Positions 1 through 4,421 of a stretch of DNA of 4,421 nt are shown one piece after another. Below the pieces are notes generated by a model. It worked only from the letters and a program-made list of their open reading frames with translations. It did not search any database and was not told the DNA's origin. Origin of the DNA: a virus (taxonomy: Duplodnaviria > Heunggongvirae > Uroviricota > Caudoviricetes). The DNA is taken from IMG/VR virus record IMGVR_UViG_2537562020_000009; one strand, 5' to 3'. The position numbers and the translations under genes are program-made. How positions within the stretch are numbered: position 1 is the first letter of the stretch; each line of letters opens with the position of its first letter.

Positions 1-1
1 A

Positions 2-307
2 CGGAGGACAGTTGTGGCGCACGTTTTCGGTGAACGCACTCTGGCCACACTGGCGCGTCTTCTGAGCCTGCTGTCGGCCTTTGAGGTCGTGGTATGGATG
101 ACGGATGGCTGGCCGCTGTATGAATCACGCCTGAAGGGAAAGCTGCACGTTATCAGCAAGCGTTACACTCAGCGCATTGAGCGACATAATCTGAATCTGA
201 GACAACATCTGGCAAGGCTGGGACGGAAGTCACTGTCGTTCTCAAAATCGGTGGAGCTGCATGACAAGGTCATCGGGCATTATCTGAACATAAAACACTA
301 TCAGTAA
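2..307 (+). CDS. insB: IS1 transposase InsB, C-terminal part (5' end outside window)
   Basis: The translation (...[70 protein letters not shown]) is the recognisable InsB C-terminus. The frame is open from the window edge and the TAA stop at 305-307 lies inside the terminal repeat, as in IS1. Confidence 0.9.
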
Positions 308-322
308 GTTGGAGTCACTACC
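300..322. repeat. IS1 terminal inverted repeat (insB-proximal end) of the left copy
   Basis: The reverse complement ggtagtgactccaacttactgat matches the IS1 end motif and pairs with 4101-4123 (ggtaatgactccaacttattgat) in inverted orientation. Confidence 0.85.
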
Positions 323-343
323 CCGCGATTTGAACGAGAAGGT

Positions 344-1393
344 TTGCTGATTGAAGGACAGAGAACAAACTATTTCAGAAATTCAAATACACCAGAAGCA
401 TGGAATAACACGGGTAGTGTGTCTGTTGAGTCGTTCGACAGTGATAAGGGGTTTAACTATGGAAGGATAACTGTTATTAATGAAAATCCGACAGCACAAG
501 GATATCAGGCAATTGCTGTAAACACGAATGATGCTTACACCTGCCCGGCAGGTTCTTATACGACGATATCGTGTCTGACGAAAAGTGATAATTCCCGGTG
601 TCGTGCAAGGTTCGGAAAAATGTCTGATAATGGTGCGTTTGTTTTTCATTCAGATGCAGTTCTGGATCCTGTTACGGGAAATGTTGTTCATGGAAATAAT
701 GTGACGGTGACGGCAGAAAGAGTCGGTGAATGGTGGTTGTTTACCGCCACTCTTTTTGCAGATGCGGAAATGATAATCAGCTCAAGATTTGAAATCCTGG
801 CGATGCCTGGAATCAGTATTATCCCCAATGGCTCTACGTTAGATATTGCGATGCCTCAGGCGGAGATTGGGTCGTACAGGACGTCATTTATCATTACTGA
901 AGGGGCTCCTGGCACTCGCTCCAGCGACATGGTGACAATACCTGTAAGAAACAATATTCACCGATTACCATTCAGTGCTCTTGTTGAAGTTAATAAAAAC
1001 TGGGATATCCCTCCCAGCAAATCACCATTAATCTTTAATGTTAAAGATTATCAGGAAAATGGTCTGTTCACGCATGGATTCCGTGGTAATAATTTCTCTG
1101 ATGCCGGTTCTCCTTTTATTTCTATGGGAGGGTGTAATAAATATGTGGCAACAACCCAGAGGAAAATCATTTCAGGCTTCCGTTGTGGCGCTGATGGAGA
1201 TGTTCAGGCCGTATGTAATGGTGAATTATCTGTTGCGGCAAAAACAACATGGACTTCAATTGTTCCACGGGCAGTATTGCGAATTGGAGGGCAGGGCACT
1301 AATGGGGAGTATCATCTTTTTGGTCATATCCGTAATCTGCGTATCTGGCATAAAGAATTAACTGATGCGCAAATGGGGGAGAGTATTAAATGA
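344..1393 (+). CDS. Putative phage tail-fibre / receptor-binding protein, C-terminal portion; 5' end apparently truncated by the IS1 insertion (frame open back to 323, first usable start is TTG at 344)
   Basis: The 349-aa ORF is in frame with no stop all the way back to the IS1 boundary at 323, has no ATG near its 5' end, and its N-terminal sequence reads like protein interior. Its C-terminus (...LRIGGQGTNGEYHLFGHIRNLRIWHKELTDAQMGE) resembles a lectin-like (LamG / concanavalin-A-type) distal domain as found in phage receptor-binding proteins. It is followed by translationally coupled tail-fibre-type genes. The family assignment is from pattern recognition only. Confidence 0.5.
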   Translation: MLIEGQRTNYFRNSNTPEAWNNTGSVSVESFDSDKGFNYGRITVINENPTAQGYQAIAVNTNDAYTCPAGSYTTISCLTKSDNSRCRARFGKMSDNGAFVFHSDAVLDPVTGNVVHGNNVTVTAERVGEWWLFTATLFADAEMIISSRFEILAMPGISIIPNGSTLDIAMPQAEIGSYRTSFIITEGAPGTRSSDMVTIPVRNNIHRLPFSALVEVNKNWDIPPSKSPLIFNVKDYQENGLFTHGFRGNNFSDAGSPFISMGGCNKYVATTQRKIISGFRCGADGDVQAVCNGELSVAAKTTWTSIVPRAVLRIGGQGTNGEYHLFGHIRNLRIWHKELTDAQMGESIK

Positions 1394-1671
1394 AAGATTT
1401 AACACTCAAATTTGCAGACAGGGCCGACTTTTCGGCCTTTATGGAGAGTATTGGCTATTATGATGACGAGTCGATGCAGGATGATATTCTTATTGACGTG
1501 ATAGGTAACGTGTACAAAGAAACCGGAGAACTGACTGAAGATGGCGAACCGGTATGTGTTAAGGAAGACGGATATTTTGTAAACGTGCGCATCATTAATG
1601 ATGTAAAAAAATCGTCAATATTCGATAAATACGCGGTTGTTGTTGAGCATCAACTTCGTGGCTGGATGTGA
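1390..1671 (+). CDS. Small acidic hypothetical protein (93 aa), phage-associated
   Basis: Its ATG overlaps the upstream stop (ATGA at 1390-1393) and a G-rich Shine-Dalgarno (gggggag, 1376-1383) precedes it. Composition is strongly acidic (about 20 D/E against 10 K/R by count). I recognise no family. Confidence 0.55.
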   Translation: MKDLTLKFADRADFSAFMESIGYYDDESMQDDILIDVIGNVYKETGELTEDGEPVCVKEDGYFVNVRIINDVKKSSIFDKYAVVVEHQLRGWM

Positions 1672-1680
1672 GGGAGACAA

Positions 1681-2385
1681 ATGGCTACATCGACAGTAAT
1701 TCCAGGAGATATCACCACGCTAAAGGGAGATGTCAGTAAAACTAAGGAAGATATTTCCTCAATTAACGGAAAAGTATCAACGCTTCAGACTGATATGACC
1801 AGTGCAAAGCAGGATATCAGCACCAGATACACAAAAACTGAAGTTGATAATAAGCTGAAAAACAAACTGGAAGTGAACGATCTGGAAAGCGGTCGTTATG
1901 GTGGAGATTTTTACCCGTTGACTGGCCGTGAAGCGTTTTATATGTGGGGATTGGGCACGACTACAGCGGCGGCAAACCTTTATCTTAATCCTGACCCTGC
2001 AATTTCGTCTGTACTGCGGTCAACATCGTCTATTCGCTATAAACATTCAGTAGAGACGATAGATTCAGAGCACGCCGATCTCATTTTCAGGATGCGCCCT
2101 GTGTGGTACAGGTCGCAATGCGAAAATGACAGGCGTGACTGGGGATTCTACGGATTGATTGCCGAGGAAGTAGGAGAAATTGCCCCTCAGTTTGTACACT
2201 GGCGACCAGCTAACGAAGATGATGCTCCTGAAGCTATTTCCAGCAATGGCCTTGTTGCCGAAGGTGTAATGTACGAACGTCTGGTTGTTCCACTGATTCA
2301 CCATATCCAGAAGCTGACTGAAAGAGTTGATGAACTTGAGTCAGAATTAAAGTTGTTATCCGTTTCCCGAAGCGATATCGGATAA
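1681..2385 (+). CDS. Short tail-fibre-domain protein with C-terminal intramolecular chaperone / autoproteolytic domain (peptidase S74-like)
   Basis: The C-terminal ~120 aa show the characteristic pattern of endosialidase / T5 L-shaped-fibre chaperone domains: S-I-R-Y-K-H-S-V-E-T-I-D (Ser/Lys region), then DLIFRMRPVWYR, then GLIAEEVGEIAPQFV, then GVMYERLVVPLIHHIQKLTERVDELESEL. The N-terminal ~60 aa are a low-complexity repetitive S/T/K/D segment (DITTLKGDVSKTKEDISSINGKVSTLQTDMTSAKQDIS). An AGGGAG Shine-Dalgarno lies at 1671-1676. Confidence 0.7.
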   Translation: MATSTVIPGDITTLKGDVSKTKEDISSINGKVSTLQTDMTSAKQDISTRYTKTEVDNKLKNKLEVNDLESGRYGGDFYPLTGREAFYMWGLGTTTAAANLYLNPDPAISSVLRSTSSIRYKHSVETIDSEHADLIFRMRPVWYRSQCENDRRDWGFYGLIAEEVGEIAPQFVHWRPANEDDAPEAISSNGLVAEGVMYERLVVPLIHHIQKLTERVDELESELKLLSVSRSDIG

Positions 2386-2395
2386 AGGAGGAGTA

Positions 2396-2689
2396 ATGGA
2401 TATAACACCTTTCCTTCATGCGCTTTGTGCTGTGGCTGCGCAGCTACTGATTGGTCTTTTTACCGGGAACTGGGCTTACGGGGCGATAGCCGGTTGTACG
2501 TTCTTCATTGCGCGTGAACACACCCAGGCAGAATATCGCTGGATCGAAATGTTCGGGCATGGCAAGCGAATGAATATGCCGTGGTGGGGCGGTTTTGATA
2601 CACGTGCATGGGATGTGGCAAGCCTGATGGATTTTGCTGTGCCGGTGGTGGCGTGTCTGCTGGTCTGGCTGTTGGTTAATCGTGGGTGA
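2396..2689 (+). CDS. Small hydrophobic (2-3 predicted transmembrane segments) membrane protein, 97 aa; function unknown
   Basis: A strong Shine-Dalgarno (AAGGAGG, 2385-2391) sits 4 nt upstream of the ATG. Two long hydrophobic stretches (LHALCAVAAQLLIGLFTGNWAYGAIAGCTFFIA and VASLMDFAVPVVACLLVWLLV) flank a charged, aromatic-rich loop. It is preferred over the antisense ORFs at 2444-2790, which lack such signals. Confidence 0.6.
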   Translation: MDITPFLHALCAVAAQLLIGLFTGNWAYGAIAGCTFFIAREHTQAEYRWIEMFGHGKRMNMPWWGGFDTRAWDVASLMDFAVPVVACLLVWLLVNRG

Positions 2690-2820
2690 AAAAAGGTGAG
2701 CTGTATATGCAACGGAGGAAGAAAACTCGTTGCTGGAAGCCTGGAAAAAGTATCGGGTGCTGCTAAACCGTGTGGACACTTCCGTAGCACCAGATATCGA
2801 GTGGCTTATTCAACCATAAT

Positions 2821-3364
2821 AAACAGTATGTATATCATAGGTTATTAATTGTGAGTTTTTTCGGTGTGTTATTTGTTTGTTTGATGTTATGCTTTTGCGC
2901 CCCAAAAGGTTGTTTAGATGTATTTTATCAATTGATTTTCAATGTCGTTTAATAAAGAAAAATTAAGCAAGCTGGATGTTGGTTTTTTGTTAATTGAATG
3001 GTTCTAATAATGTTTTTTTACTGTTGTTGAATGTGACTTGATAAGAAATGCAAGTAAAAATGATACTCTTTTTATTTTAAATTCAAACGGTTGACATATA
3101 TATAGCAAGAGGTTTCAGGTGCGTTGTAGTGAGTTTATGTTAATAAAAAGTATAGTAAGCGTTGAAAAATGTAACTTTGAAATACGTTAGAATAAAAAAC
3201 AATATACATATAATAATTTAATCTTAAATGAAATTTATTAAAATTTGCAAACTATAATTTTGTGTATAAAAATATAAATGCACATCATCCTGATTATGAT
3301 TGTGTATTTAATTGGTTGTTATTTGACTGCTATCAACTTGTTTTAATTTTATGATAGGTGCAAG
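2821..3364 (+). promoter_or_regulatory. Extremely AT-rich intergenic regulatory tract upstream of the AraC-family regulator (candidate promoter and nucleoid-protein binding region)
   Basis: Hand count gives 136 G+C in 540 bases (about 25%), with many A/T tracts. Contains a perfect TATAAT at 3209-3214 (weak -35 candidates only), a TTGACA at 3091-3096 without a good -10, an ArcA-box-like 15-mer at 3139-3153 (11/15 to GTTAATTAAATGTTA), and an AGGTG Shine-Dalgarno at 3356-3360 for the downstream gene. Exact promoter positions are not determinable from sequence alone. Confidence 0.45.
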
Positions 3365-4105
3365 ATGGATTATGTTTGCTCCGTAGTTTTCATCTGTCAA
3401 TCATTTGATTTAATTATAAACAGGAGAGTTATCTCGTTCAAAAAAAATTCATTGTTTATTGTAAGCGACAAAATTAGAAGGGAGTTACCAGTATGCCCCT
3501 CTAAACTAAGAATTGTTGATATAGATAAGAAAACATGTTTATCCTTTTTTATCGACGTGAATAATGAGCTGCCTGGCAAATTTACTCTTGATAAGAATGG
3601 CTATATTGCTGAAGAGGAACCTCCATTATCGCTTGTTTTTTCTCTGTTTGAAGGGATTAAAATAGCAGACTCACACTCCCTTTGGTTAAAAGAAAGACTA
3701 TGTATATCCTTACTTGCCATGTTCAAAAAACGCGAAAGTGTAAATTCATTTATACTAACAAATATAAATACATTTACCTGTAAAATTACTGGAATAATCA
3801 GTTTTAATATTGAGCGGCAATGGCATTTAAAAGATATTGCGGAATTGATTTATACGAGTGAAAGTTTAATAAAAAAAAGATTAAGGGATGAAGGAACGTC
3901 ATTTACTGAAATATTGAGAGATACTAGGATGAGGTATGCAAAAAAACTCATAACTTCAAACTCTTATTCTATCAATGTCGTAGCCCAGAAATGTGGCTAT
4001 AACAGTACTTCATATTTCATATGTGCATTTAAAGATTATTATGGTGTCACGCCATCTCATTATTTTGAGAAAATAATCGGCGTCACAGATGGAATAAACA
4101 GGTAA
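3365..4105 (+). CDS. appY: AraC/XylS-family transcriptional activator, AppY-like; the final codon and stop codon are supplied by the adjacent IS1 end
   Basis: The C-terminal ~100 aa form a typical AraC-type double helix-turn-helix region ([44 protein letters not shown]...[29 protein letters not shown]). The N-terminus [21 protein letters not shown] matches my recollection of E. coli AppY. The gene is low-GC with an AGGTG Shine-Dalgarno, and the ORF ends ...GINR-stop, where the AGG codon spans the junction (4100-4102) and TAA (4103-4105) lies inside the IS1 end. Confidence 0.7.
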
Positions 4106-4123
4106 TGACTCCAACTTATTGAT
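4101..4123. repeat. IS1 terminal inverted repeat (insB-proximal end) of the right copy
   Basis: ggtaatgactccaacttattgat is the canonical IS1 end sequence, inverted relative to 300-322. Confidence 0.85.
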
Positions 4124-4421
4124 AGTGTTTTATGTTCAGATAATGCCCGATGACTTTGTCATGCAGCTCCACCGATTTTGAGAACGACAGCGACTTCCGT
4201 CCCAGCCGTGCCAGGTGCTGCCTCAGATTCAGGTTATGCCGCTCAATTCGCTGCGTATATCGCTTGCTGATTGCGTGCAGCTTTCCCTTCAGGCGGGATT
4301 CATACAGCGGCCAGCCATCCGTCATCCATATCACCACGTCAAAGGGTGACAGCAGGCTCATAAGACGCCCCAGCGTCGCCATAGTGCGTTCACCGAATAC
4401 GTGCGCAACAACCGTCTTCCG
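4116..4421 (-). CDS. insB: IS1 transposase InsB, C-terminal part (5' end outside window)
   Basis: The minus-strand translation (...[68 protein letters not shown]...NIKHYQ) is InsB. The frame is open to the window edge and the stop lies at 4116-4118. Confidence 0.9.

Follow-up and report, generated by a model that had tools for sequence, protein, structure and literature searches.

When a regulator gene runs straight into an IS1 element at the end of a draft contig, does the junction record the loss of the gene's function and of its chromosomal neighbours, or a simple insertion? The window, that is, the whole stretch of DNA analyzed here, is the complete 4421-bp draft contig AQCZ01000139.1 (assembly GCA_000354315.2), and both of its ends lie inside IS1. 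On the basis of the evidence described below, we consider it highly likely that its right-hand junction represents a simple IS1 insertion in codon 246 of appY, that this allele belongs to a group of ETEC strains, and that the AppY protein is most likely still active.

The contig carries the end of a defective prophage between two IS1 copies

The segment between the two elements (positions 323 to 4100) is the tail end of a DLP12-like defective prophage, where, as we presume, appY stands convergent with ompT, followed by envY. This middle part holds the 3' part of a tail-fibre gene, three small open reading frames (ORFs) of the fibre cluster, a tail-fibre-assembly (tfa) remnant, a spacer, and appY. 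The features of the window are as follows.

1 to 322, plus strand: left IS1, of another isoform, last 322 bp up to its IRR end (IRR variant at 296-322; InsB C-terminal part at 14-307)
323 to 1393, plus strand: 3' part of a prophage tail-fibre gene, cut by the left IS1 at 322/323 (residual ORF at 344-1393)
2821 to 3364, no strand: A+T-rich spacer upstream of appY, 25% G+C by base composition
3365 to 4105, plus strand: hybrid appY::IS1 ORF of 246 amino acids, native AppY through residue 245, with codon 246 (Arg) and the stop contributed by the IS1 end
4092 to 4100, no strand: GAATAAACA, the 9-bp target-site duplication of IS1, left copy; its right-hand partner lies outside the contig
4100 to 4105, plus strand: junction codon AGG followed by TAA, by direct reading of the sequence
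4101 to 4421, minus strand: right IS1 (IS1A/B type), of which the contig includes the 321 bp nearest the IRR end before breaking off within the element

The genome of E. coli B strain REL606 is 100% identical to positions 323 to 4100 over all 3778 bases, and the counterpart of the fibre part there lies within an intact 2346-bp tail-fibre gene; the NF048003 spike-fibre domain was matched in the tail-fibre ORF of the window. K-12 aligns with the window at 99.4% DNA identity from position 2709 onward only, and upstream of that point it has different DNA (tfaD, ybcY, and tfaX). The ORFs at 1390-1671 (93 amino acids) and 2396-2689 (97 amino acids) are small and conserved and travel with the fibre cluster. 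No NCBIfam family was found for either of them, and the 97-amino-acid product looks hydrophobic.

IS1 supplies the last codon and the stop codon of appY

The junction reads GAT GGA ATA AAC A/GG TAA TGA CTCC, where the stroke marks the boundary at 4100/4101. The codon AGG (4100-4102) is made of one A from the appY flank and bases 1 and 2 of IS1 (GG), and the stop codon TAA (4103-4105) is made of IS1 bases 3 to 5. Such an immediate stop is provided by the IRR end in this reading frame only, one of three; the other two frames would add 7 or 26 codons. A sequence-only reading of this DNA had already described an ORF ending in DGINR and a stop, with AGG and TAA built from the IS1 end, and direct reading gives the same result. 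It had also stated that the native C terminus after GIN was replaced and that K-12 AppY has 249 amino acids, leaving about four residues exchanged. The translation of K-12 AppY (b0564) indeed has 249 amino acids and ends in GVTDGINKTID, and not natively in GINR; the window protein is identical to it at 245/245 residues, followed by K246R and the stop. Exactly four residues (K-T-I-D) have thus been swapped for one Arg, giving the C terminus DGINR*.

K-12 AppY is an activator of the AraC/XylS family that acts on the hya and appCBA operons, and its gene lies in the cryptic prophage DLP12. The window form shares with K-12 AppY residues 1 to 245, the HTH_18 and HTH_AraC domains, the position at the end of a DLP12-like prophage, and the A+T-rich upstream region. 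It differs in having 246 rather than 249 amino acids, in its IS1-templated last codon and stop, and in the displacement of the native 3' untranslated region by 777 bp (768 bp of IS1 plus the 9-bp duplication). No AppY-specific NCBIfam model was among the matches, the best of which were GadX, YdeO, and HilD, all far below their cut-offs; the name AppY therefore rests on the identity to b0564. In addition, the 246-amino-acid form and K-12 AppY share one 90% cluster, the sources name the 246-amino-acid form AppY, and the same protein is annotated in strain TW10598 as appY (WP_001393528.1). Judged by this identity at the sequence level, the regulator gene, which had previously been called AppY-like, is appY itself.

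On the other side of the junction, the IS1 terminal inverted repeat GGTAATGACTCCAACTTATTGATAGTG begins at 4101 (IRR match at 4101-4127), and the C-terminal coding part of InsB occupies 4116-4382 on the minus strand. The coding part was matched, as a partial hit, by the NCBIfam IS1 family transposase model NF033558 (E value of 9.7e-19). Positions 4101 to 4421 are identical to the corresponding part of the IS1 adjacent to appY in TW10598, which is annotated as IS1A, and the identity is 100% over 3300-4421. We regard this match as one that is not due to chance resemblance. The target DNA of the element has a G+C content of 32%. IS1 prefers A+T-rich targets.

The insertion is shared with human ETEC isolates, in which ompT and envY are in place

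In 28 complete E. coli genomes, junction queries with about 100 to 110 bases on each side matched the near-side junction in one piece, and the same 28 of 28 also gave a single uninterrupted match to the far-side junction. These carriers are mostly human ETEC isolates, several of them typed O6:H16, and include TW10598, B2C, FORC_031, the E-series strains, 99-3165, and F5656C1. The allele annotated as WP_001393528.1 in human ETEC (TW10598, B2C, FORC_031, and the E series) has the same junction and the same 246-amino-acid protein as the window. Of the 836 complete genomes in which this part of appY is present, 806 have the site uninterrupted, and the exact 246-amino-acid protein occurs on 130 public contigs, versus at least 1000 for the K-12 form.

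The four IS1 copies that were measured are 768 bp long and are flanked by the 9-bp duplication GAATAAACA; these 9 bp bracket the element in TW10598, 99-3165, and F5656C1 and are present as a single copy in K-12. In TW10598, the element is followed by the second copy of the duplication and then by AAACAATTGACTGA, exactly as in K-12, and further downstream by the rest of the appY 3' end, ompT, envY, ybcH, nfrA, and nfrB in the K-12 order. As a 768-bp IS1 with a 9-bp duplication is followed directly by K-12-like DNA in this strain, the event was a simple insertion in which nothing was lost. Every annotated locus examined that has DNA beyond the element carries ompT and envY after IS1. Of the genomic context expected for appY, the upstream part (fibre genes and tfa remnant) is thus seen in the window and the downstream part (ompT and envY) in all relatives examined, the source contig itself stopping inside IS1. 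The marks of an adjacent deletion (missing DNA and no duplication) were absent in the relatives with the identical junction. The element conforms to a simple IS1 insertion in that the terminal inverted repeat, InsB, the 768-bp length, and the 9-bp duplication are all seen in the relatives; nothing about it is unusual, and its first 321 bp are on the window contig. The order appY-ompT-envY, which the sequence-only reading had given for K-12, is borne out in the K-12 genome. Its suggestion that these neighbours were deleted or displaced found no support for this allele, as 28/28 relatives carry both junctions and the genes are in place where examined.

We turn from the relatives to a proposed mechanism. 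A single 768-bp IS1 would have transposed into codon 246 of appY, duplicating the 9-bp target GAATAAACA. Its IRR end (beginning with GGTAATGA) would provide the GG that completes an Arg codon and then an immediate TAA, and the predicted product would be AppY 1-245 plus R rather than AppY 1-249 (ending in KTID). This would be a plain insertion with no deletion; beyond the element, the relatives have the remainder of the appY 3' end, then the intergenic region, ompT, and envY. The allele would mark a group of human ETEC isolates (several of them O6:H16), with the source strain lying within or close to this group, and the truncated AppY would most likely keep its DNA-binding and activator function.

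Two side observations concern the IS1 copies in these genomes. Strain 99-3165 has a second IS1 inside envY (locus L007, 13476-14243) with the duplication TGAGCAGGC, indicating that the neighbourhood accumulates IS1 copies. Further, the IS1 copies at the same appY site differ between genomes by 28 substitutions, located at IS1 positions 231 to 642, while their ends are identical (locus L001, 9802-10569, versus locus L007, 10737-11504). These differences look like a conversion patch between IS1 isoforms, which would have formed after a single insertion.

The source strain differs from the ETEC genomes on the left side

The ETEC complete genomes match the window only from position 467 on, with one mismatch in 3955 bases (467-4421), which lies outside IS1. 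At window position 467 (locus L001, 6168), a deletion in these genomes has joined a terminase fragment to the fibre gene. In contrast, the source keeps positions 323 to 466 and has an extra IS1X2-like element at 322/323 that is absent from the ETEC genomes. Because it retains this segment and carries an extra inverted IS1 at the left, the source is not simply one of the 28 genomes. The left junction (322/323) was found in 0 of 5426 complete genomes and was seen only in the source assembly and in the Logan run SRR10664611.

The left IS1 is inverted relative to the right copy, with both IRR ends facing inward. Its isoform is annotated as IS1X2-like in one genome, and 100% identical copies of it occur elsewhere in ETEC O6:H16 genomes. 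The left and right copies are 90.3% identical, a divergence that speaks against either having arisen by duplication of the other.

The truncated AppY probably remains functional

Pfam HTH_18 was matched at AppY residues 159-235 (59.4 bits, with a cut-off of 33.6) and HTH_AraC at residues 198-233. The scores of these helix-turn-helix (HTH) models are equal for the 246- and 249-amino-acid forms; the double helix-turn-helix domain is intact, and the lost residues lie at least 10 positions beyond the end of the AraC-type HTH domain. In alignments with homologues of solved structure, the position matching AppY residue 235 is followed by 5 more residues in Rns (265 amino acids) and CsvR (267 amino acids), and the position matching residue 241 by 2 more in ToxT. 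As these proteins end sooner, AppY-246 is still longer than the equivalents of complete functional homologues.

Derdouri et al. found that a 3Flag tag at the C terminus leaves AppY able to induce appC and hyaA (PMC10057817), which shows tolerance of an addition only. The activity of this tagged form thus suggests that the extreme C terminus of AppY tolerates modification (PMC10057817). Activation of the hya and appCBA promoters is known for K-12 AppY and its C-terminally tagged form only (PMC10057817). Taken together, the domain limits, the ends of the homologues, and the tagged protein suggest that AppY-246 probably keeps its DNA-binding and activator function, in line with the proposal of the sequence-only reading that the protein still works.

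With the insertion, appY is no longer joined to its native 3' untranslated region. When the stretch between appY and ompT was scanned for promoter and terminator consensus sequences, both with IS1 and without it, no signal exceeded the level expected from shuffled sequence, and no terminator call for appY was usable. Rfam, searched with the window and with an intact appY-IS1-ompT locus, returned no RNA family, so there is no known 3' untranslated element for the insertion to remove.

Comparison with E. coli B

E. coli B offers a second case of change at the same prophage end. The idea that ompT was lost in E. coli B through an IS1 at appY proved wrong, as REL606 has intact appY and ompT. The deletion in BL21(DE3) (locus L020, 2551-3268) extends from the N-terminal part of the same fibre gene to near cusS and removes appY, ompT, envY, ybcH, and nfrAB, with no IS1 annotated at the joint. 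The ompT-minus state of BL21(DE3) involves the same neighbourhood and is an example of the loss of ompT and envY; unlike the change in the window, however, it is a large deletion from which appY is gone as well, and it is not the mechanism at work here.

Alternative explanations

The simple insertion has to be weighed against explanations in which the two IS1 copies of the window did more. In the source strain, the IS1 at appY could mark an adjacent deletion, inversion, or other rearrangement mediated by IS1, by which ompT and envY were lost or moved. The far side of the element lies outside the source contig, the second, inverted IS1 3.8 kb upstream, which only the source has, would allow inversion by recombination, and BL21(DE3), which is without appY, ompT, envY, and nfrAB owing to a deletion starting in the same fibre gene, demonstrates that the region can be lost. 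However, both junctions of a simple insertion are present in each of the 28 complete genomes that share this junction, and the loci examined have the duplication, ompT, and envY. In addition, the 90.3% identity of the two elements disfavours both homologous recombination and duplicative intramolecular transposition, while the BL21 deletion, lacking an annotated IS1 at its joint, takes appY too. We consider such a rearrangement very unlikely. The two inverted elements and the 3.8 kb between them might also be read as a composite transposon with appY as its cargo, for which Tn1681 and Tn9 serve as comparisons in style. Apart from two IS1 copies in inverted orientation flanking a segment, the features of the locus point the other way: the right junction is an ordinary chromosomal insertion in appY that is common to genomes without the left IS1, the left junction is in no complete genome, and the segment sits in its native prophage context at 100% identity to REL606. 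This reading is extremely improbable, and it was dropped when a plasmid search for the IS1-flanked segment gave no record with at least 80% of it.

Two further alternatives accept the insertion and differ from our reading in its history or its effect. The IS1 in appY of the source could be a separate gain at a hot-spot target, not inherited in common with the ETEC complete genomes. The area around appY is a repeated IS1 target, with five sites within about 1.4 kb in complete genomes, and the left flank of the source is structurally unlike that of the ETEC genomes, but the other four insertions are each at different sites, whereas the source and the ETEC genomes share the same nucleotide, the same orientation, and a visible IS1 identical to that of TW10598, with one mismatch in 3955 shared bases, of which 3634 are flank. 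An independent gain is accordingly improbable in our judgment. It is also unlikely that AppY is inactivated or strongly lowered, whether by being cut short or because its transcript lacks the native 3' end, in which case the allele would be a knock-out on its way to becoming a pseudogene. The surrounding prophage region is visibly decaying, as seen in the fibre gene cut by IS1, in deletions, and in a frameshifted rzpD in TW10598; worse lesions of appY occur elsewhere, namely, the frameshifted gene of 20AR0300 and the AppY of AF46 that another IS1 cuts to 234 amino acids; and IS1 now lies between appY and its native downstream sequence. Against inactivation, the loss amounts to just four residues, which lie well away from the HTH domain and past the C termini of functional homologues, the remaining 245 codons are without change relative to K-12, the allele persists unchanged on 130 contigs, and C-terminally tagged AppY works (PMC10057817). 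Simple insertion in a gene that still encodes an active regulator thus remains our preferred explanation.

Significance of the allele

The allele is already known in the sense that RefSeq genomes carry it as an annotated appY (WP_001393528.1) beside an IS1 transposase; no paper describing it emerged from a literature search on appY together with IS1. Nothing about it is new in kind, as it is an ordinary IS1 in an ordinary simple insertion and a routine lineage marker. In itself, the event matters little: it is a textbook insertion of an IS1 whose terminal bases, by chance, include a stop codon. Its practical use is as a clean marker by which a group of human ETEC isolates can be typed by PCR. 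Further, it reminds annotators that a C terminus can be templated by an IS element, and it corrects the assumption that a gene next to an IS1 must have lost its neighbours.

Other IS1 insertions around appY

Four further independent IS1 insertions were observed within about 1.4 kb of this one in other complete genomes, namely, in AF46, WP2-S18-ESBL-07, 20AR0300, and STEC346 (IS1 coordinates: L014, 3393-4160; L015, 2501-3268; L016, 3266-4033; L017, 3417-4184). In AF46, the shortened AppY of 234 amino acids ends in SHYW*. In WP2-S18-ESBL-07 and 20AR0300, the element lies in the appY-ompT spacer, and in STEC346, it lies in the A+T-rich upstream spacer, at window positions 2834-2842, with the duplication ATCATAGGT. 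The window-equivalent sites of the four include, besides this one, 4056-4064.

The five appY-area sites could reflect a target hot region in DNA of 25 to 32% G+C, or they could reflect selection. The AppY regulon includes hya, appCBA, and RpoS stabilisation. We see a very slim chance that the ETEC allele changes the dosage of AppY, through loss of the 3' untranslated region or terminator or through antisense transcription from IS1, and so retunes this regulon in the lineage. Each of the four other insertions has its own 9-bp duplication, and all five elements have the same orientation, with the IRR towards the 5' side of appY; in this common orientation, the insA promoter reads towards appY.
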